Origin: an uncultured Methanosarcinaceae archaeon | GTDB taxonomy: Archaea > Halobacteriota > Methanosarcinia > Methanosarcinales > Methanosarcinaceae | Direction of reading: 5' to 3' | Length of the DNA: 64,000 bases | NCBI GenBank assembly: GCA_963833425.1 | Contig: CAWHXP010000003.1 | Location: forward strand, 32,001 to 96,000 | Shown here: in pieces, positions 47,698 to 60,124 of the stretch | Layout: each line of letters begins with the position of its first letter | Position numbering within the stretch: position 1 is the stretch's first letter | The notes under the pieces: generated by a model | What the model was told of the DNA's origin: nothing | Database searches by the model: none | What the model saw: the letters and a program-made list of their open reading frames with translations, nothing else | Made by a program: the position numbers and the translations under genes

Positions 47698-48465
47698 ATG
47701 GAAAAGGAAAGGAGTTACAGTGTGCAGAAAATTTTAAAAAATAACATAAGTAAGGCTGACATTACAAGAATTAATCTCAACGAGAGCGACTTTAAGAGAT
47801 TTAATCTTATAGGGATCGACCTTAGAGAAGCTAACCTAAAAGAATCCAACTTTGAAGGGGTTAATCTTATGGGAGCCAAACTAGAAGGCTCTAACCTTGA
47901 AGGAGCTAATTTTAGAGAAGCTAACCTTAAATGGGCTAACCTTAGAAAAGCTAACCTTGAAGGAGCTAACCTTGAAAGAGCCAATCTTATAGAAGTTGAC
48001 CTTAGAGAAGCTAATCTTATGGACACTAATCTCGAAGGAGCTAATCTTGAAGGAGCTAACCTTATAAAAACTAATTTCTATGGAGCTGACCTTCAAAAAG
48101 CTAATCTTGAAAAAGCTAATCTTGAAAAAGCTAATCTTGAAGGGACTAACCTTGTAGAAGCTAACCTTGAAAAAGCTAACCTTATGGGAGCTAATCTTCA
48201 GTGGGTTTACCTTAAAGGAGTTAACCTCAAAGAAGCAGACCTTCAAGAAGCTAACCTTAAAGACGCTTACCTTAAAGAAGTTTACCTTGAGAAGGCTAAT
48301 CTTAAGAAGGCTAACCTTGAATCAGCTTTCCTTGGAGAAGCTTACGGACTATCACTTGACCAACTTTCTAAAGTGAAAACACTTTACGATACTAAATTAG
48401 ACGAAAAACTTCTCATACAATTAAAAGAGAAATATCCTGTCCTTTTTGAAGAAACTAACGGATGA
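47698..48465 (+). CDS. Pentapeptide repeat protein
   Basis: Long run of ANLxx repeats; C-terminal LSLDQLSKVKTLY...LKEKYP.LF. Confidence 0.92.
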   Translation: MEKERSYSVQKILKNNISKADITRINLNESDFKRFNLIGIDLREANLKESNFEGVNLMGAKLEGSNLEGANFREANLKWANLRKANLEGANLERANLIEVDLREANLMDTNLEGANLEGANLIKTNFYGADLQKANLEKANLEKANLEGTNLVEANLEKANLMGANLQWVYLKGVNLKEADLQEANLKDAYLKEVYLEKANLKKANLESAFLGEAYGLSLDQLSKVKTLYDTKLDEKLLIQLKEKYPVLFEETNG

Positions 48466-49789: not shown

Positions 49790-50082
49790 AAATTAAAACG
49801 ATACGGTACAAATTGCAAACAAATAGCCATATATTTTGTGTCGCGCAACGTTGACCGTGGCTGCAAGTATAACAGATGCTGCCATAGTGCTGTCCCTATC
49901 ACAAGTATGGTGGTGATAGGTGTGTTTTATGATTTCAACATTTTCTACTTCAACTACTATTTTTATTCTCTCTAGCAACAACAGGTTCTGCACTTACTTC
50001 TGCAGCTGTCCTGATACCACAAAAAGAACTGCCAGCAAACTAGCCAGTGCTGCTGTCATTCTAATAGATGATTGCCCCAACA
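49790..50082 (-). pseudogene. Degraded small secreted protein
   Basis: GGTG SD then MLGQSSIRMTAALASLLAVLFVVSG signal-like sequence, frameshift to AAEVSA. Confidence 0.45.
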
Positions 50083-50599
50083 TTTATTTCACACCTTTAT
50101 GGCTAAAATTAATAATTATAAAGGAATTTGTTTTTAGTAACTATTCAAACTATCAAAAATTGATTGGCTGAGATCTATTCTATTGCGCCAAGATATTCGA
50201 TGAACGAATTACTTACTGGGCTTAATTCGTTATTTTAAATTAATTACACAAAAAATAGTTTCTAAAGAAAACTTATTTTCCTCTTTTCATCGGACATTAT
50301 CGGATAATTAGATTTTCAAAGTTAAAAACACTTTCTATATTCTGATCGCTGAACGAGCACATAAAAACATAGGAAAATTTAATATTATATTACTAGAACT
50401 TCCACTCTGGCTTTTTTATTTCCGGATTTTTATGATGTAACTTAAGGTTTAACCTTCTATTTTTTGGATCAATATTTAAATGTTAATCCTTGAATTATGC
50501 ACAGCTTTTGCTATAAAAATCTATGTATCTATGAAACAATCGGTGTGTCTTCTGAAAGATTAAAATTCGAAAATTTCCTTTCTGATCATTCTAAATAGT

Positions 50600-52188
50600 A
50601 AATATTTATTTCAGCAGCTTTTAGTATCAAAGAGTGATCTCAATGAATACTTAGAGGAGTTTTATGGATCTAGAAACTCTCGCTCATCGAGCATCAGATA
50701 TTCTCTTCCCCGCCTTGCCTTTCATTTATGAGGGAAAAGATGTTGTAGTAAAAAAAGTTGGTGACGTACTTCTTGAAGAAGGTATCAAAAACAGATAGAT
50801 ATTTCATTGGTATTTAAAAAAGAAAATATTATTCAATTACCGGGGATTACCGAGGATACTGCAAAAAAAATTGCCCAGATAGCTAATAAAAATTGGGATG
50901 AAATTGAATTTAATAATACTGTAGGCTCAATTTTTATGCCTATAGGTATCATAAGCCAACTATTTTTGGCAATTCCGGATGAAAAAATACATTTAAAACA
51001 TATTTTAATAACTTGTCATCTGCTCCATAAATGCGGTATTTTCAAAGAAAAAAAACCTTTCTTTTAGATTGGATTACACTTTTTTGTGATGTATACTATG
51101 AATTTAAAACGAAAAAATGGGAATGGGAAAACTCTTTAGAAGAACTTGAAGGATATCATCTTATACAATTATTATCAGCTTCCACAATTTGGGTTGAAGA
51201 AGTTTATTTGGAGCGAATATATAATCCAAAGAATCGAATTTCTGATTTAACTTTATATAGGACAATGATAGACTGTTTTTCAAATAATCCAGACGTTTTT
51301 TTTGATTGTCCTGAAGTATTATTTCGGTTTACAAACAATCCTTATTATTTTCTAGGAGTTTTAGATGATAAAAAAGTAAAACTATATATCCTGGCAAAAA
51401 ACGTATGTGAAAAGGCAATAATTGAGACTCTAAAGAATTCAATTGAGAATGTTCAGTATCACAAATTTCTTGGAATTTCATATCGTGTTCTGTCAGAAAT
51501 GGATGAGAAAGATCAAATTTTTAATGCCAAAAAAGCGATTAAATCATGTGTTAAATCTTGTAGATATTTTGAGTCAAGTAGTGATTCCTCAAGAGGTTAT
51601 GCAATTTGGAAATCCGACCTTGGAACTGCATATCGACACCTTGCCGAAGTAACTTCTCAGGCAAATAAAAAAAGAATCTATTGTAATAAAGGAATAAAAG
51701 CTTGTGAGGAAGCTCTCCAAATTAAGGAGTGCCCCCTCGTATATCATGCCACCACTTATACCATCCTTGGAACGTTACATAGAATTCTTGGTGAAGTAGA
51801 ATATGAGAAAAAAAACTACAATCAAGTAATAGACAATTGTACGAAAGCAAAAAGATATTGTAAAGAAGCTTTAAACATCTACACAAAGAACAATCTTACA
51901 ATTCAAGTTGCTACCACACAATACGTGTTAGGAAAAATTTACAAATTGCTTGCAGAAGAAAAAAAATCACTTAATGTCAGAACATTCAGAGATTTTAAAA
52001 TTGATTTTGCAAAGACTCAAGTAATATTGAGAGATGCATATTTGATTCTCTCGAAATTTGAAAATGAATCAAATAATCGTACTAACGCAAAAATTGCTTA
52101 TGAAACAGCATTAAATGTATTTTCAAATACTAAATTCCCAAGATTACATGATTCCATTCAATCTAAGATTAAAAAAAAGAATGATTAA
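50600..52188 (+). pseudogene. TPR-repeat protein, frameshifted (A-run near 51048-51055 and upstream stops)
   Basis: TPR-like units LGISYRVL, LGTAYRHLAE, LGTLHRILGE, AYETALNVF; upstream coding-like frame 50807-51067. Confidence 0.7.
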
Positions 52189-52331
52189 TAAATATTTTTA
52201 GACATTAGAGCGTGATTTAGAAAATAACGTTGTACGAATTTAGATACAATTAAAATATATGAAATACTGAACAGTAATAAATAATTAAATAATTATATGT
52301 TGTTTTACTAATGCAAAATCAGGAAGATATA

Positions 52332-52883
52332 ATGATACTGAGTCATAAGAACAAAAGTCCAAAGATTTCAAAGACTGTTTTTATTGCAGACTCTGCAGAT
52401 ATAATTGGAGATGTAGAAGTAGCAGATTTTTCAAGTATATGGTTTAATGCTACAATTAGAGGAGATCAAAATAAAATAATAATTGGAAACAGAACAAGTA
52501 TCCAGGATAATATGGTAATTCATGCAGATATTGTTAATGGAGTGAAAATCGGGGATAATGTAAGTGTAGGACATGGAGATGTACTTCATGGATGTAAAAT
52601 AGAAAATAATGTTATTATAAGAATGAATTCTACAGTGCTAAATGGAGTTGATATCGGGAAAAATTCCATAATCGACGCAAATTCACTGATACCTGAAGGG
52701 AAAAATTTTCCTGAAAAAAGCTTAATTATTGGAGTTCCAGGAAAGACAAAAAGAGAAATTGACGAAGCTGAAATCAAATCCATAGCAAAAAATGCCGAAA
52801 AATATGTAGAGCTTACAAAAGAGTATAAAAAGAATAAAGAAGACTCCAAAGATATAAGGAGAGATATTCCGTTGCAAAAATAA
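52332..52883 (+). CDS. Gamma-carbonic anhydrase family protein (CamH/YrdA-like)
   Basis: IRGD, SIQDN..IH, VGHG.VLHGC, GVPGK. Confidence 0.88.
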   Translation: MILSHKNKSPKISKTVFIADSADIIGDVEVADFSSIWFNATIRGDQNKIIIGNRTSIQDNMVIHADIVNGVKIGDNVSVGHGDVLHGCKIENNVIIRMNSTVLNGVDIGKNSIIDANSLIPEGKNFPEKSLIIGVPGKTKREIDEAEIKSIAKNAEKYVELTKEYKKNKEDSKDIRRDIPLQK

Positions 52884-53103
52884 TTGATTAATATATTTAG
52901 CTTCATTAATATCAGAGTAGTTTAGATACTTAGAGATGAAACATAAAAAATATCAAAACATTTTTCATGGTTATTTCTCAAACCTTTTTGTGGGATTACT
53001 GAAAAATTAAGTTCCTGATTTAGTTATTCATATTTTGAATTTTGTTTAAGTACTCGAGTATTATTTTTTTCTGATATTTTCTATTTATGATTATTCTCCA
53101 GTC

Positions 53104-53253
53104 GGTTCCGTTGCAGAAAATCAGAACATTTTATAAAATCGCTGAAAATCTTCACAATCAGGTAATTTGAGTGATCAAATTGGGATTAAAATATCATTTA
53201 AAGGAAATAATAATGACCTCAAAGTAAAGAAAAATTATTTTTGCAACAGAACC
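53104..53253. mobile_element. IS6-derived MITE (150 bp)
   Basis: GGTTCCGTTGCA ... TTGCAACAGAACC, no transposase. Confidence 0.85.
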
Positions 53254-53439
53254 ATATATCTTGTTTTAAACTTTGCATATAGGATGGAGATTGCTGACAA
53301 CATCATAGAACAGATCCAAGCACGATGTGTTCATTTATTAAATATTATGCAAAATAATATTCTCTAATCAGTTTGCAGAAAAAAATCGCATCATTTAATC
53401 TGGCTCTTAAAGAACCATCTTAGATTAACACTATTAAAA

Positions 53440-53650
53440 ATGCAATTGAACTGCGGTCAACCCAGATGGAACAAAAGCGTATGTAACAAGCAGTGCCAGC
53501 GGCGACAATAATGTCTCTGCAATTACACAGCCACACAACACTCACTGTTGCAGCCAGGGTGAATACAGGAAACAGCCCTGAAAGAGTCGCAGTCACACCC
53601 GATGGATCAAAAGTAATGTTGCAAATTCTGGTAACATCAGTGTTTTGAAT
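53440..53650 (+). pseudogene. YVTN beta-propeller (surface protein) fragment
   Basis: AVNPDGTKAYVT and GNSPERVAVTPDGSKV. Confidence 0.75.
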
Positions 53651-54157
53651 TGACATTTCAAATAACTCAACAGAAATATCAAATTCAGATCTTCATAGCT
53701 ATATGCAAAGCTTTTTCGTCTAAACGTTCCAGGTTAAGACTTGTTTGAGTAAACATAAACAAAAAAACCACTCGAAACACAAATATGCCAAAAAAATTTA
53801 TAAGTGTAAAGTAACTAAAATAATTGATGCATAGTTCCATTACATGTAAGTAATGACAGCAACGAAGAACTTAGATCCTGGCTTACGGTGTCCATAGCAT
53901 ATGGGAAGAACAAAACAGTCCATAGCCAGTACTGACTGCATTCCTGCTATATTAGAACTTGTCGATGTCCATGTTTTTTACCTGGGTATCCAAAATATTT
54001 ACACTTATAAGCCCACAAAAGTTTGCTAGGGATATTGCTGAGGGACATCAGGCAACCCAAATCTCAAGACCATTTAATGTGAATATTACCCAGTTTAATT
54101 AGCACTATATAGTATATATGCAGAAGATATATAATACATCAAATCTAGTTATTATTT

Positions 54158-54270
54158 AAAGGTATTCTAGTACCTAGCATTCTACCTTCTCTCGGGCTGC
54201 AGGATCTCTTCACCTGCAGCTAACAAGATCAACTTTTTTGACAAACAAGATCAACCTGGTCACATAAAGT
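54158..54270 (+). ncRNA. Candidate sRNA, copy A
   Basis: TATA at 54126-54135; hairpins AGGTA..TACCT and GCTGCAGG..CCTGCAGC; ACAAGATCAAC x2; no conserved ORF. Confidence 0.6.
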
Positions 54271-54910
54271 AAAAAACAAAAAAGTTGAATTTTGATCTTT
54301 TAATCGATACTACTATTGTTTGAAACTTCCAATTTTTGTGGATAATAGGTTCCAACGGATGGAAAAGATCCGAAAGTCTTAGATCCTTAATTGCTCAATC
54401 TTGTGACAGTATGTCTAATTTAAGACTATTGTACCACAGCAGACCACGTTCACGGAGCTTTGTAGCATTTTTAATTTTCTCCATATCCAAGCTCATTCAT
54501 ATACAGGAGTTTTGTGTTGAATTTGCGACAAATCAAGAGACATCTTCTACAGTGGAATTAGAGTCGTTATTTTAATATTTTTTCATACTCTGTTCAAAGA
54601 TTCATTAAAATATATATAATCTTATTCAGTTTAATTAAGTATAGGGCAAGTTTATGATTTAAGTCAAAAATGAATGATTATAGGATTATGAAAGGCATTT
54701 TCTTGAGTTTGGTAAGGATCTTAATCCTATTGACAATCCAAAACATTCAGTAGGGACTTTGATCAAGCCTTTTAGTGATTTGCGGAGAAAGGCTCCATCC
54801 GTTATATTTCATGAGATAAGGACCACACAACTGATATATTAATTAGTTTATGGAAGTACAATTTAGGATATATACAAAACCTATATAATAGATTGATTTG
54901 AGTTCTAATT

Positions 54911-55020
54911 TATAGGTTCTCCCGTAGCTCCAACCCAGCCATTCTACCGGACTTCAGGCATTGATCACCTGCATTTCACAAGATCAACTTTTTGACACTA
55001 AGACGAGCCGGTTTAACTAA
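54911..55020 (+). ncRNA. Candidate sRNA, copy B (diverged)
   Basis: TATA at 54882-54890; CAGG..TCACCTG hairpin; ACAAGATCAACTTTTTGACA. Confidence 0.5.
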
Positions 55021-55164
55021 GCTAATTAAATAAAGTAGAAGAAGTCTAATTTTGGAATTTGCGCATATAATCGACCAATATTATATCTTCGTCATCATAT
55101 AAGCTTGCGTAATTTTACTGTGAATATTGCAGTAGGACATAAGACAACCCGAAGTCAGAACAAC

Positions 55165-55246
55165 ATAACTTTAATCCTAATTAGTTTCAGTTAGAGATAT
55201 ATGTGCACAAAAGTATATAATAAATTAGATTTAGTAATATTTTATA
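55165..55246 (+). promoter_or_regulatory. Promoter-only copy D of the same unit
   Basis: CTAATTAGTTTCAGTTAG...CAAAAGTATATAATAAATTAGATTTAG matches 56508-56580; RNA core absent. Confidence 0.55.
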
Positions 55247-56577
55247 ATTTTTCAAATATCTTTATATCGACATCCGATCGGACTAGGCATTTCCACCAGC
55301 AGACCAAAATATAAATTTTTGGAGATATAAGATCAGCTTGATAACTTAAATTAATAAAAAAACTAAGTAATTGATGGCTTTCGAAGATGTCGTGGTTGTT
55401 ATTTGCATGCTTGATGACAAAATTAAGACGAAGCGAACAGTACATTTTGTAGTTAAACTCATTATTGGCAGTTTATTTTTGGGCATCTTGATAGGCCTAT
55501 TTATTTTTTTTCACTTAGTGAACTGGACTTAATATAATACAGTGTAATTAAATAAGTTCAAAGCAATGATAAAATGAAAATCAGCCCACATAAATTTGCT
55601 TAATTAATCGTAGTGAAGGCAAGATTGAGATTCCTTTGGAGAGCTGAATAATTGGCTTCTCCAGAAATATAAATTTTCAATTCACGAACGCCTTAAGATT
55701 TGAAATTTCACAGAAAAATTGAAATACTACCAATCTGCTCAAATAAGTTAAATCACGATCATAAACAGAAAAAACCTAAAAAGTTGTCATCATTGTTTAT
55801 AAGATTAAATACGTAAGTTTTATAATATTTAGATATATCTATGAATATATAGAATATATACAATAAATATATATTAAATCACATTTATTTGATATATCAT
55901 GATACATAATGCACTACGACATAAATCCTGGAAAAAAAAATGTTTAGTGTAGTTATGTATCTGAAAATAACAGATTATCAAGGAGTTTATGATAAATAAC
56001 CCATACGCTGCAGATATCCCTAACTTGCAGATTGCAATGATGTTTTGAAAAAAAATGTCGTTTAAAAACCTTGTCAGCAGTTCTAAAACCTTTGGGTTAT
56101 CTGGGCATCATCATAAAAATAAAATGAGATTTCTCATATCGCTGATGGACCATAGTCAATCTCCTTACCAACTAATTCTTTTTGAGCATTGTAGAAATAT
56201 ACTATATCTTCAGTGCTAATCAAGACAAATGAGTACTTATCGCAATTTATGTGTCTGTGGTGCACTGGGTGTTGTAGACAAATTACAACTTTTACAACAG
56301 CTATTATTGATGTTTGGGTTAGGCTCTAAATAAAAAATGAACGATCTTAAGGCTCTATACGGCCTTTTATTGAGTTGAATAGGGGATCCTAACAAAGGAA
56401 CAACCAAAAAACCCATTTTAGGGGCTGAGATCAAGTCATTTATTGATTGACTGGGAAACGCACTCGTTTGTTATAATTCATGAATAGGACTGCATGATTA
56501 GTAGACTAATTAGTTTAAGTTAGTGCTATTTAGGGTATATCCAAAAGATATATAATAAATTAAATCTAATTATAATT

Positions 56578-56690
56578 TATAGGTATTCCCGTACCTTGCA
56601 GTAGACTTTCCGGCTGGCTGCAGGTATCTTGTCACCTGCAGCTTACAAGATCAACTTTTAGACATACAAGATCAACCGGATCACATTAAT
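56578..56690 (+). ncRNA. Candidate sRNA, copy C
   Basis: TATA at 56547-56556; same two hairpins and ACAAGATCAAC x2. Confidence 0.6.
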
Positions 56691-58090
56691 TAATAATAAG
56701 AAAAAAATTAGTCTCAAGCAAGACCAGTAATATGTTAAACGGCCTAAAGCTATGATTTAATGATGTAAAAATAAATTAAATTTAAAAAGACAATGAATAT
56801 TCTGTTAGTAGTCTGAGTTGAGCTTCATTGTCAGTTACATAAGTTAGTGATATCCATAGCAATAATAAAAGTAGCGCCAATAACAAGTTAAGCAGGTATT
56901 AGTACAAAATATGGCTCCAGCATCTATATTTAACTATACTATCTCAAATCCGCTTTCCAATTTCTGGCAAATCAACCAGGTTCCAAAGAGCAATTAATTA
57001 ATTGATACATAACTGGCATCAAAATGTACTAAATGCACTTGTGTACTTTATTAATACTTTTTTGGTATTTTCTAGCCTCAATCGATCTTTGATTCAGTTG
57101 ATTCATATTCCTAGTTTTGTTTAGAGTATTATATAATTATCTTTTTATGTGTTTATTTATGATCGTGATTTAGGTTAATTAATTCACGGTTCCATGAGTT
57201 CCATATCGCTACTAGTCCCAAAAACTCCATGATCGTAGATCATCAATATTTCCTTACACACACCACCATAGTCATGGTCAGGTTGGTATGATGGATGTAA
57301 TTAGCCAATCATGAAATTGATATCGATCTGGCGGCTCTTCTTGGCATCGTTGAAATTTACTTTATTTTGCTTCTAAGAAGCATTATCAAAATTTTTAAAG
57401 TTTCTATTTAAATTTATAAACTTGTCATAGAATGTTTATCTAATAGTTTTTTTATTAATTTTAAAGCTTCTATTAATTACAGGTATACACTAATTAAAAC
57501 ATCGTATTTGTGCCAACTTGTAGGCAATAATTCTGAATAAGTCTGTATGAGTTTACCCCATGTTCAACATTCGGCTATCCGTATATCTAAATTTGAAAAT
57601 CTACCACATAGTCACATGGTAAAAGCCTTTCAATAAAAAACGATAATCAACTTATATTATATAAACATTATTATCTAAATAGTTAAGAAATTCATATTTT
57701 ACTCATTTAAATTATTTTTTTACCTATTTCTATTTTAAAAACATGAGCATTATCTAAAGTTAAATAAAAAAACCCACCAATATTTGATCGAGAAAAAATT
57801 GAGTGTTAAACTATGATTAAGGGATATACAAAACCAAAAGTGCAACCAAAAAAATAAGAAAATAAATTTGTGGATGCCCATGAAAAATTTTCAATTTAGA
57901 CTAAAAATAATAAAATTTTAGAGCAGTTATCATAATACAAACTAAATTGATCAAATAATATACTTACTTAAAACTATTGCAAGTAAGCTGCAAACGAAAT
58001 AGATAGTCATCAGGAGCCATACCAAATTTGTATACTATAGACTTAAAAAGTACAGAAATGTGGCGAGATAATACGCCAACATTTATACAT

Positions 58091-58411
58091 TTACCCGAAC
58101 AATGCACCTAGGCCGGCCATTCCATCCTCTTCAGCATGATCCTCCTCTTCTTCTTCCTCAACAGGAGCTGCAGCTGTTACAGTTGTTGCGGCCGCAGGGG
58201 CTGCAACTGCGGGAGATACGGCAGTAGGAGCTGCAAATGCAGCCTTTGAAATTGCTTCTTCGATATTTACGCCTTCAAGGGCTGCGACAAGAGCCTTAGC
58301 CCTAGCCTCGTTTACTTCGATGCCCGCAGCCTTGAGAACTGCAGTGATTGCTTCTTCAGTAATTGCTTTACCAGCATTATGCAATAAGAGAGATGCATAT
58401 ATATATTCCAT
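58091..58411 (-). CDS. rpl12: 50S ribosomal protein P1/L12
   Basis: [11 protein letters not shown], Ala-rich hinge, acidic tail GLGALFG. Confidence 0.97.
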
Positions 58412-58447
58412 TGTTTTATCACCTAATTTCAATTAACACAAATTTGT

Positions 58448-59482
58448 TCATCCAAAAAGAGCACCGAGACCAGCCATTCCATCTTCTTCGGCATGGTCCT
58501 CCTCTACCTCTTCTGGTTCTTCTTTTTGTACTTCTTCCTTCTTAACAGGTACTGTGGCTGCTATCGCACTTGGTACAGCCTCGAGAACCTTTTTAAGGTC
58601 GTAGTCTACCGCATCTGAACCGCATTCTGCGGCTTTAGATGCGACGGAGATCATCTGTATATAGGCCCTTGATAGAAGGGAATCCATGATTCCTGAATCA
58701 AAAACAACAGCATTTACACCAAGGTTTTTTGCTTCTGTAGAGGCCTTTGCCAGCAGAGTGCCGATTGTTGCACTTGTAGGGTACGCAATGTTAACAGATA
58801 AATTGAAAGCGTTCTGATTTGCCTTGATAATATCAGAAAAGTATTGGTTTTCATCAATTGTAAGGAGTTCAGGCTCATAAATCATTTTTTCATCATAAGC
58901 TGCTCTTAGGTCCAACCCTATGATTAGAGGGTATATATCCAACTTTGAGAGCATAGTTGCGAGTTTTTGTGGGACTCCCTCACCGGCTTTACAGACAACC
59001 TTTGTTTCCTTTATCGCAACTTTTCCGGCTTCAATTGAAGCTGGAATCCCTGCACTCTGAAGTTCACCCAAAATAGGGCCAGGAGGGAAATTAGTAGGCC
59101 CTTTTTGAACGGTAATATCCATCGGAGAAATTGCGCCTCCTCTAATAGGTGACGGGGTCTTTGTACGCTCGAGCACTTTTTGAAGCTTGAAAGGACTTTC
59201 GTTAGTAAACACCAGAGCGGTCTGTTTGTCAAGGTATTTATTCATCCCTAGAATGCTTCCCCCAAGTTGATTTAAAGCCAGCTCTGTGAGAGTGTTCCTG
59301 GATACCTTAACCACCGCAACGTCTTTGAGGTCCCGACGAATCTTCTGGATCTTGACCGCAAGAATCCCTTCGATTCCTACCATTCCAAAGACCTTATGAG
59401 AGAGTATGAGTTTCTTTATTTTTTCAATTTCTTCTTTCTTCCACTTTGGGATATGCTCAGTGTGATGCTGTTCTTCCGCCAT
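58448..59482 (-). CDS. rplP0: 50S ribosomal protein P0/uL10
   Basis: IPKWK, VSRNTL, GPTNFPPGP, GLGALFG. Confidence 0.97.
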   Translation of the reverse strand: MAEEQHHTEHIPKWKKEEIEKIKKLILSHKVFGMVGIEGILAVKIQKIRRDLKDVAVVKVSRNTLTELALNQLGGSILGMNKYLDKQTALVFTNESPFKLQKVLERTKTPSPIRGGAISPMDITVQKGPTNFPPGPILGELQSAGIPASIEAGKVAIKETKVVCKAGEGVPQKLATMLSKLDIYPLIIGLDLRAAYDEKMIYEPELLTIDENQYFSDIIKANQNAFNLSVNIAYPTSATIGTLLAKASTEAKNLGVNAVVFDSGIMDSLLSRAYIQMISVASKAAECGSDAVDYDLKKVLEAVPSAIAATVPVKKEEVQKEEPEEVEEDHAEEDGMAGLGALFG

Positions 59483-60124
59483 TTACATCACCTTCTCTGA
59501 TTTACCCATGGTTGTCGTGACATAGATCGACCTAAGGTTGTGCTTGCCCTTATCCAGAATACGTTCCAACCTAGCTATAACAGTCTCAATGTTCTCGGCA
59601 AGGTCTTCAGGATTCATATCCCTCATTCCAACAGCCACATGGAAAGTAAGCCTGTCTTTTGACCTAAGCTTGACAGCATTCTTTTTACTTTGAATCAGTT
59701 CACCTACATCCTTGTTAGGTAATAACGGAATAGGCATTTTTCCTCTGGGCCCGAAAACAATACCAAGGTTCTTACCAATTGTCGGCATGAACTGAGTTTC
59801 TGCGATAAAAAGGTCACATTCATTTGCGAGAGTCCGGGCTCTATTCTTGTCAGCTGCCAGTTCTTCGAGTTCAACTTCAGAAATAACATACGCAGCACCG
59901 GCAGCTTTTGCCTTCAAGCCGACGTCACCTTTTGCAAAAACACCGATCTTCAGTTCTTTTCCGAGCCCATGTGGAAGAATTACTTCTTCATCGACTCTAT
60001 TCTTCGGTTGATTCATATCAAGATTTTTTAAGTTAATCGCCAGGTCCACACTTTCAGAGAAATTGCGTTTTGGAGATATCTCAAGTAATTTCTTGACAAC
60101 TTCCAGTATAATTTGTTCTGCCAT
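59483..60124 (-). CDS. rpl1: 50S ribosomal protein uL1
   Basis: RNFSESVDLAINL, GPRGKMP, TTTMG. Confidence 0.97.
   Translation of the reverse strand: MAEQIILEVVKKLLEISPKRNFSESVDLAINLKNLDMNQPKNRVDEEVILPHGLGKELKIGVFAKGDVGLKAKAAGAAYVISEVELEELAADKNRARTLANECDLFIAETQFMPTIGKNLGIVFGPRGKMPIPLLPNKDVGELIQSKKNAVKLRSKDRLTFHVAVGMRDMNPEDLAENIETVIARLERILDKGKHNLRSIYVTTTMGKSEKVM

Follow-up and report, generated by a model that had tools for sequence, protein, structure and literature searches.

The concept closest to the elements described here is promoter reuse, as in the putative mobile promoters of Nijveen, Matus-Garcia, and van Passel (2012; PMC3575422), i.e., very similar non-coding upstream regions that stand before non-homologous genes within a genome and with which RNA regulatory motifs can travel. 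Their survey dealt with near-identical matches of 50–100 bp, and the parts of its text that were searched do not mention Methanosarcina. In this work, we analyze a window of 64,000 nt (the whole stretch of DNA under study) from an uncultured Methanosarcinaceae archaeon, which contains an array of four related units, named A, B, D, and C in their order along the + strand, each consisting of an archaeal promoter-like sequence and a core that follows it. The window copies are members of a repeat family that has been amplified in a clade of six peat/soil Methanosarcina species. The reading that we favor, with confidence that is about evenly balanced, is that the unit would be a promoter re-used together with its structured 5′ leader, forming the head module of a cassette system. 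Judged by the sections of PMC3575422 that were consulted, the units resemble putative mobile promoters in being homologous non-coding DNA before non-homologous genes, and they differ in that copies are 70–90% alike, form a covarying two-hairpin leader, occur in tandem arrays, mostly have no downstream gene, and have expanded together with genes that resemble those for a phage small terminase subunit (TerS-like genes).

The intergenic small RNAs (sRNAs) sRNA154, sRNA41, and sRNA162 of Methanosarcina mazei are roughly 100–130 nt long. Anti-ribosome-binding-site (anti-RBS) sequences have been described in loop 2 of sRNA154 and in sRNA41 (PMC5867862, consulted in part). The units share with these sRNAs the genus, a comparable size, and a stem-loop architecture, and some units have words that resemble the 3′ end of 16S rRNA. 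In contrast, the M. mazei sRNAs, which were compared here by their description in the sections consulted, are single-copy and experimentally detected, whereas the unit family is multicopy, is known from sequence alone, has no Rfam match, and was not found in 33 of 59 genomes of the genus. On this footing, membership in the M. mazei sRNA group cannot be claimed. Literature on Methanosarcina sRNA paralogues, promoter reuse, terminase/repeat links, and MITEs (miniature transposable elements with inverted repeats) or dispersed repeats gave no description of the repeat family, and a survey of prokaryotic satellites (PMC6749651), in the part consulted, covers short tandem and protein-coding repeats and not this element.

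Results and Discussion

Window copies of a dispersed repeat family

We built a covariance model, R1, with 125 model positions from family copies and scanned it over the whole window. The scan gave exactly four matches, all on the + strand, with E-values from 5e-29 for the best copy to 2.6e-15 for the weakest, far beyond chance, and the next match had E = 0.87. A preliminary description of this DNA had placed three cores where R1 now puts them (A, 54147–54271; B, 54901–55024; C, 56568–56692) and had put a sequence resembling a B recognition element (BRE) and TATA box before each unit at similar spacing. This sequence does stand at a fixed distance, starting about 19 nt upstream of model position 1, and the other parts that had been described, namely an AGGTA...TACCT hairpin, a GCTGCAGG...CCTGCAGC hairpin, and two ACAAGATCAAC boxes that are 21–22 nt apart, were all recovered, each of them weaker in B. 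Unit D had been credited with a promoter only, and this was wrong, because R1 aligns the full 125-position model to D at 55233–55353 (77 bits), with degraded hairpins. The features of the array are as follows.

54120–54136, + strand: promoter of unit A (function predicted), BRE/TATA-like GCAGAAGATATATAATA, TATA start placed by an alignment of 37 copies
54147–54271, + strand: predicted transcribed core of unit A, R1 117.8 bits, E 4.7e-25, RNA fold z = −2.9, laid out as hairpin 1, linker, hairpin 2, CACAAGATCAA box, T6 run, and second box
54874–54890, + strand: predicted promoter of unit B, ACAAAACCTATATAATA, placed by the 37-copy alignment
54901–55024, + strand: core of unit B, R1 91.2 bits, E 1.1e-18, T5 run, fold z = +0.6
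55206–55222, + strand: putative promoter of unit D, CACAAAAGTATATAATA, read from the sequence and the alignment
55233–55353, + strand: core of unit D, R1 77.2 bits, E 2.6e-15, spanning model positions 1–125, both hairpins broken
55374–55532, + strand: small open reading frame (ORF) after unit D, intact, 52 aa plus stop, with a C-terminal hydrophobic helix, member of a recurrent small-protein family
56541–56557, + strand: predicted promoter of unit C, CCAAAAGATATATAATA, placed by the 37-copy alignment
56568–56692, + strand: core of unit C, the best copy, R1 134.4 bits, E 5e-29, RNA fold z = −3.1
56581–56585 with 56592–56596, + strand: hairpin 1 of unit C
56616–56624 with 56635–56643, + strand: hairpin 2 of unit C
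56645–56655, + strand: box of unit C
56656–56659, + strand: T4 run of unit C
56666–56676, + strand: second box of unit C

In the R1 alignment, both helices of unit B are partly degraded, with non-standard pairs in each. The array had also been presented as a local set of four, which does not hold, as it is part of a dispersed family. A blastn search with the four units found 53 places in the 4.07-Mb assembly from which the window comes (hereafter the source genome), 37 of them at least 120 nt long, and the copy count there is 51 by an nhmmer profile and 48 by the covariance model. Some units form tandem arrays with a period of 330–370 bp, and in some of these arrays no ORF lies between the units.

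To survey the genus, the covariance model was run on 59 Methanosarcina genomes at a threshold of E ≤ 0.001, where copy counts in metagenome-assembled genomes (MAGs) are lower bounds. Matches were found in 26 of the 59, six of which have 29–58 copies (48 in the source genome, G000; 55 in G019; 29 in G055; 56 in G064; 42 in G065; and 58 in G067) and twenty of which have 1–5. The remaining 33 genomes, three complete 4.1-Mb ones among them, gave no match with the model, and blastn gave no match in 16 genomes that represent other genera of the order. When named genomes were scanned for an exact pattern, 27 stretches came up, 25 of them in five peat/soil Methanosarcina MAGs and Methanosarcina sp. 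T3 and the other two in bacterial MAGs, where there is no flanking similarity at all. The preliminary description had suggested a cmscan search of Rfam, and in Rfam 15, searched with window positions 50000–60000 at a permissive E threshold, no family matched the units; the only hit was a chance match to mir-2818 outside them (24 bits as compared with a gathering score of 90, E 0.22).

Covariation and segmental conservation

In a rough count by pattern, 42 of the 51 matches in the source genome have a TATA-like hexamer upstream, with five of the nine partial matches among those that have none, and in all 37 long copies the TATA aligns at a fixed distance. Since transcription in archaea usually begins about 26 nt past the TATA box, we infer a start 1–3 nt before hairpin 1. 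Just 5′ of the BRE/TATA, TTAG occurs three times at 10-bp spacing (TTAGTTTAAG TTAGTGCTAT TTAGGG, e.g., at window positions 56506–56540). This TTAG stretch, in the −60 to −10 region of the units, is kept even in low-copy species, and the repeats could be a regulator site. At window positions 55847–55879 there is a fifth promoter-like copy of the BRE/TATA region of the units (ATATAGAATATATACAATAAATATATATTAAAT), with no core behind it.

The structure was tested on 64 aligned copies, 37 from the source genome, 23 from named MAGs, and four low-copy orthologues. Pairing was found in 89.2% of 872 cells (78.7% in hairpin 1 and 95.2% in hairpin 2), and changes on both sides occur in nine of the 14 pairs. 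There were 31 double-change cells as compared with 11.7 ± 2.6 when these interrelated copies were shuffled, and none of 500 shuffles reached the observed number. When the partner was slid by 1–3 columns, pairing fell to 28–54%, and the 37 copies of the source genome alone gave the same picture. Cells with G·U outnumber those with A·C by 57 to 24, or by 37 to 22 if the pair with a G·U consensus is left out, and this excess speaks for an RNA of the + strand rather than for a palindrome in the DNA or an RNA of the minus strand.

Conservation within the core is segmental, with a mean pairwise identity of 0.79 in the hairpin 2 arms and 0.80 in the CACAAGATCAA box as compared with 0.52 in the linker, 0.50 in the hairpin 2 loop, and 0.49 in the tail. 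The preliminary description was right that the core is better preserved than its surroundings. It was also right that no reading frame is conserved, since + strand frames anchored at hairpin 2 each hit a stop within 15 codons in 23–29 of the 64 copies. Its idea that a variable segment might set target specificity is not supported, and that segment is the least conserved linker. The box is single-stranded and lies 3′ of hairpin 2, and it is followed by a run of T4–T7 that has at least five T in 40 of the 64 copies and at least four in 52. GATCA motifs recur at spacings of about 22 and about 10 nt, and the 3′ boundary differs by subclass, with homology stopping at about +95 or about +145. A third helix, or an alternative to hairpin 2, was considered and rejected, since no robust helix came out when the 3′ half was folded with RNAalifold and as single sequences.

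These measurements bear on whether the array is neutral debris, i.e., recent segmental duplications of a promoter-leader-gene cassette in which the genes have decayed and the apparent conservation reflects youth or gene conversion. Such an origin would suit an array that lies in a 5-kb AT-rich, ORF-free stretch made of several repeat families, and many downstream ORFs are indeed broken, as are the hairpins of B and D to differing degrees. Yet the copies differ by 20–30% overall while hairpin 2 is 95% paired with double changes, identity is 0.79–0.80 in the hairpin 2 arms and box and about 0.5 alongside, and the module has been kept across at least 26 genomes, so we regard neutral debris as quite improbable.

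The 3′ end of 16S rRNA was read from the source genome itself (rDNA on contig C2), and 6-mers identical to it occur in 29 of the 64 units as compared with 10.2 in shuffles, where the maximum over 200 shuffles was 20. The tail of some copies (e.g., L116 and the copy at 143.8 kb of contig C6 in the source genome) reads GGATCACCT-AAGCTAATAAA, which is like the 16S end and the bases that follow it, GGATCACCTCCTAAGCAATAAA. The full 9-mer of this tail is present in only two of the 64 copies, and the likeness may be a coincidence.

Hairpin 2 also has relatives behind other 5′ modules. At window positions 55935–56035, a divergent hairpin-2-like element (GCTGCAGAT...CTTGCAGA), to which R1 gave no score, stands behind a different 5′ module (ATGTTTAGTGTAGTTATGTATCTGAAA...). 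The same alternative module is found before hairpin 2 as well at 172.9 kb of C6 and 515.2 kb of C8 in the source genome, and a related form is present in L112/L142.

Genes behind the units

We examined 20 low-copy loci to see what the module leads into. At nine of them, it opens a leader of about 240–260 nt before a 46-aa zinc-ribbon ORF (CPEC…CPVC motif; its Pfam zinc-ribbon matches are all sub-threshold), at four it opens the leader of a pentapeptide-repeat gene, and the other seven have mainly hairpin 2 plus box in other settings. In the source genome, a family of small membrane-protein ORFs stands behind four units (unit D and others on C20, C6, and C7), a family of 39–48-aa ORFs stands behind three, and pentapeptide-repeat genes stand behind three, two of these genes being broken. 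Hence, the unit occupies a leader position between promoter and start codon at 13 of the 20 low-copy loci and in the 10 source-genome units before these three ORF families, while A, B, and C are not so placed. Counted from model position 1, six of the seven ORFs that make up the first two families have their start at +130 to +159 and the seventh has it at +348, and small ORFs begin 10–35 nt past the unit end in at least six copies of the source genome. Because starts at +130 to +159 leave no room for another promoter, the unit should be the whole 5′ untranslated region (UTR) of those six ORFs, and its leader position both in low-copy species and before the small ORFs of the source genome argues that the unit is a 5′ UTR in those copies.

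In the window, the core of unit D is predicted to be the entire 5′ UTR of the ORF at 55374–55532, which starts 21 nt past the end of the unit. The small membrane-protein family to which this ORF belongs has 10 open frames of 52–69 aa among 14 distinct tblastn places and matches no Pfam or NCBIfam family. Two longer proteins of the source genome that are predicted to be membrane proteins (C17:24223–24360 and C2:315979–316104) are similar in their N-terminal part to the unit D ORF, and the gene of the unit D cassette may be a truncated paralogue. In type I toxin-antitoxin systems, a small hydrophobic toxin ORF lies behind a long structured 5′ UTR with an overlapping antisense RNA. The unit D ORF has a hydrophobic C-terminal half behind a structured UTR of about 130 nt, whereas other ORFs of the cassettes lack hydrophobicity.

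Ordinary genes, which are PAP2-like, OYE-like, and transporter-like, stand behind a few units, and the PAP2 orthologue in G067 has no unit, so that the unit shows presence/absence at an orthologous gene. The genes behind units are thus non-homologous, comprising small membrane-protein ORFs, 'DVYDVYGKK' ORFs, pentapeptide and zinc-ribbon genes, and the PAP2-like, OYE-like, and transporter-like genes. Most units, A, B, and C among them, are followed by nothing conserved. The ORFs downstream of unit A are not common to related copies, and when 10 relatives of the unit C cassette were aligned to about +500, no common intact ORF was seen, only remnants of a small frame with a hydrophobic start. On the other side of the units, a possible coding block at −135 to −40 that resembles a C terminus (…VIIHEIRTT*) was rejected, because no open frame longer than 64 codons was found in 37 copies and a tblastn search with the best fragment recovered that fragment alone. 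A role of hairpin 2 as a terminator of upstream genes was rejected as well, there being one clear case (L139) while none of nine partial copies in the source genome follows an open frame of at least 100 codons.

The preliminary description took the units for independently transcribed paralogous sRNAs. Two parts of this stand, namely, a promoter for each unit and two covarying hairpins on the + strand, and the free-standing trans-acting role is not supported, since the low-copy homologues are 5′ leaders. In its full form, such an sRNA family would have each unit as a complete gene for an RNA of about 85–120 nt, with the linker as seed and the U-run as terminator, that acts on other mRNAs, e.g., by masking their ribosome-binding sites, and the copies linked to an ORF would be dual-function or subject to read-through. 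The promoter at each unit, the compensatory hairpin changes with their + strand G·U bias, and the T-runs (at least four T in 52 of 64, at least five in 40 of 64) agree with this, as do the solo units A and C, which are perfect in structure with no ORF, the tandem arrays of units that have no ORF between them, and the 16S-3′-end-like 6-mers in 29 of 64 units as compared with 10.2 in shuffles. Published M. mazei sRNAs reportedly act via anti-RBS sequences (PMC5867862, in the sections consulted). Against it, the low-copy homologues are plainly 5′ leaders, and the zinc-ribbon version has no T-run. Where an ORF begins 10–35 nt past the unit, in at least six source-genome copies, the T-run must be read through. 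The linker that would serve as a seed is a segment of lower conservation, and words resembling an anti-Shine–Dalgarno sequence occur in under half of the copies, where their excess may be inherited rather than selected. We therefore consider a free-standing sRNA family unlikely, and the 5′ UTR of a deleted gene, a case that the preliminary description had raised against its own reading, suits A, B, and C no less well than an sRNA.

TerS-like partner genes and the question of mobility

In pac-type phages, a small terminase occurs with its pac site, and phage satellites carry stand-alone TerS genes. Divergent upstream of some units is a 140-aa ORF that matches PHROG 4102, 'terminase small subunit', with E 1.7e-15, its TerS-likeness resting on this single profile match. 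The protein has no Pfam family and no PDB sequence relative, and in NCBIfam it gave only weak aspartate-ammonia-lyase noise. An example, with none in the window, is the following.

L012:2030–2449, which is C9:52793–53212 of the source genome: TerS-like gene

TerS-like matches number 27 in the source genome, 48 in G019, 11 in G055, 40 in G064, 26 in G065, and 50 in G067, as compared with 0–3 in each of the other 53 genomes, so the TerS-like expansion and the unit expansion are found in exactly the same six genomes, which form one clade and hence represent one event and not six. The TerS-like gene has its own conserved upstream block of ~330 nt, present in 31 copies in the source genome. A unit lies within 1.5 kb of 10 of these 31 blocks as compared with about 1 expected by our estimate, and 11 of 12 pairs are head-to-head. 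In sister genomes, at least 25 further head-to-head pairs within 1 kb were read by eye among the matches listed, most of them with a gap of about 423–430 nt and several involving two to four arrayed units. No TerS gene or block adjoins the window array, and no other phage genes were seen beside the TerS-like genes. The stand-alone TerS-like gene family may be the mark of an unrecognized mobile system in Methanosarcina.

This association raises the idea that the unit acts at the DNA level, with the phased GATCA/AAGATCA repeats (perhaps with the palindrome) as pac- or partition-like protein sites of a selfish or mobile cassette system tied to the TerS-like gene and with any RNA being secondary. 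The restriction of high TerS-like counts (11–50 matches) to the six unit-rich genomes, the proximity and head-to-head orientation of the source-genome pairs, the at least 25 pairs among the sister-genome matches, the GATCA spacing of about 22 and about 10 nt, and arrays that are not syntenic between species are what one would expect of it. Like TerS/pac modules, the system has a predicted TerS-like DNA-binding gene beside arrays of short phased repeats, in many copies per genome; unlike them, it has no other phage genes alongside, its units are predicted to be transcribed away from the gene, and its covariation is of the RNA type. Compensatory changes with a bias of G·U over A·C are predicted by an RNA and not by a protein-binding DNA palindrome. 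The module is also present at low copy number in 20 genomes, many of which have no TerS-like match (G004, for example, has four units and no TerS), next to the window array there is no TerS gene or block, and neither terminal repeats nor target-site duplications were found. A DNA-level element is, in our judgment, improbable.

A combined proposal, on which the sequence patterns give us similarly low confidence, is that the units encode structured RNAs of ~85–120 nt with ribosome-3′-end-like and AAGAUCA motifs and make up, together with the head-to-head TerS-like genes, an undescribed archaeal selfish cassette system with ~50 unit copies and ~30–50 TerS-like copies per genome. The RNA of such a system would have either a trans-acting role, in which it masks ribosome-binding sites or titrates a protein, or one in the control of the partner gene.

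Neisseria Correia elements are promoter-bearing MITEs, i.e., small high-copy intergenic repeats. The units likewise bring promoters and hairpins next to genes, and a MITE or the end of an insertion sequence (IS), which the preliminary description had named as a possible alternative, would account for their high copy number, intergenic position, and lineage-specific expansion and for the IS6-like transposase fragments near a few copies. The units differ from Correia-type MITEs, however, in that no terminal inverted repeats around them were found by a repeat search and no target duplications were found, in the variable 3′ boundary (about +95 or about +145 by subclass) where uniform ends would be expected, and in the tandem arrays with a 330–370-bp period. 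No intact upstream gene is present in any of the 37 copies, and window positions 54050–55550 had no match in the phage and plasmid collections. The single empty-site comparison, at the PAP2 locus of G067, showed a replaced segment with no readable target duplication, and there the other flank is itself a multicopy repeat, which makes the boundaries unreadable. A MITE or IS end is thus very improbable.

A proposed re-used promoter and leader module

The reading of the unit as a re-used promoter plus structured 5′ leader would work as follows. A strong archaeal promoter would be followed by a structured 5′ leader of about 120 nt, made up in order of a 5′-terminal hairpin, a linker with little conservation, a strong hairpin that is rich in GC, the single-stranded CACAAGATCAA box, the T4–T7 run, and further GATCA repeats. 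This module would have a long history in Methanosarcina as the first part of the leaders before a zinc-ribbon small-protein gene and before pentapeptide-repeat genes, and one clade of six peat/soil species would have re-used and amplified it to about 30–60 copies per genome. In these species, the amplified module would head short gene cassettes that are often in tandem and often head-to-head with a TerS-like gene. The promoter may fire constitutively or under a common regulator, and the 5′ hairpin and hairpin 2 may protect, stabilize, or mark the RNA. Part of the transcripts would end at the T-run behind hairpin 2, giving an RNA of about 85–90 nt, and the remaining transcripts would read through into the small ORF where one is present.

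Speaking for this proposal are the dispersed family with its constant spacing of promoter and core, the + strand covariation of the RNA type, the leader position in low-copy species and in at least ten source-genome copies, the use before unrelated genes, the presence/absence at the PAP2 orthologue, and the joint expansion and pairing with the TerS-like gene. Several observations weigh against it. Only about 10–14 of the 51 source-genome units precede a recurrent or sizeable ORF, with A, B, and C not among these, and A and C keep perfect hairpins and promoters with no ORF behind them. The T-run of at least five T in 40 of 64 copies is as compatible with a short RNA that terminates there as with a leader, and no alternative (antiterminator) pairing was found, as RNAalifold on the 3′ half gave weak helices of 4–5 bp only. 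Hairpin 2 plus box also occurs with no promoter or hairpin 1, once 34 nt past the stop codon of a PBP_like_2 gene (phosphate-binding type; L139), and part of the unit may thus have a role that is not leader-specific. Finally, because the copies are interrelated, the covariation is less significant than the shuffle controls make it look.

Attenuators and riboswitch-type leaders are structured 5′ leaders with premature terminators. The units share with them a promoter, a conserved folded leader, a T-run before the ORF, and the use of one leader on several unrelated genes, and they differ in having no antiterminator fold, in having two simple hairpins that lack the complexity of a ligand pocket, and in being mostly geneless.

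What the family offers is a conserved, covarying RNA module that is not in Rfam, that has a clear ancestral context in the zinc-ribbon and pentapeptide leaders, and that was recently amplified 10- to 50-fold in peat methanogens. Post-transcriptional control elements of archaea are poorly catalogued, and promoter reuse has hardly been described in archaea, for which the family is a natural experiment on the re-use of a promoter plus leader. Should the short RNAs exist, each genome would hold dozens of paralogous sRNA genes, a number that would be unusual in any prokaryote.

Setting of the array in the window

The array sits in a 5-kb stretch (about 52.9–58.0 kb) with 27–33% G+C and no ORF of at least 90 aa, flanked by a hexapeptide-repeat transferase gene on one side and by the 3′ end of the L11-L1-L10-L12 ribosomal-protein operon on the other. 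Five sister genomes match the ribosomal side at 84–90% identity, only up to window position about 57737 on the rpl12 side, and past this point the array region matches many scattered places at 70–80%. The array has no orthologue in these five genomes. Because the homology of the ribosomal side ends here and the matches beyond are scattered, the array is a species-specific island built of repeats. Within it, the tandem of A, B, and D precedes the single surviving small ORF at 55374–55532, and C heads a decayed cassette. The layout of three units and then this ORF recurs at 14.7–15.7 kb of C20 in the source genome and on a G019 contig.

The same AT-rich island holds, 6 kb from the array, a 255-aa pentapeptide-repeat gene at window positions 47698–48465. 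Pentapeptide genes are typical cargo of the module elsewhere, and R1 detected no unit before this one. Elsewhere in the source genome, a ~1-kb segment with a methyltransferase-like ORF (L172:1651–2701, which is C15:38550–39600) is multicopy at 81–92% identity, both in the source genome (C9, C8, and C7) and in sister genomes.

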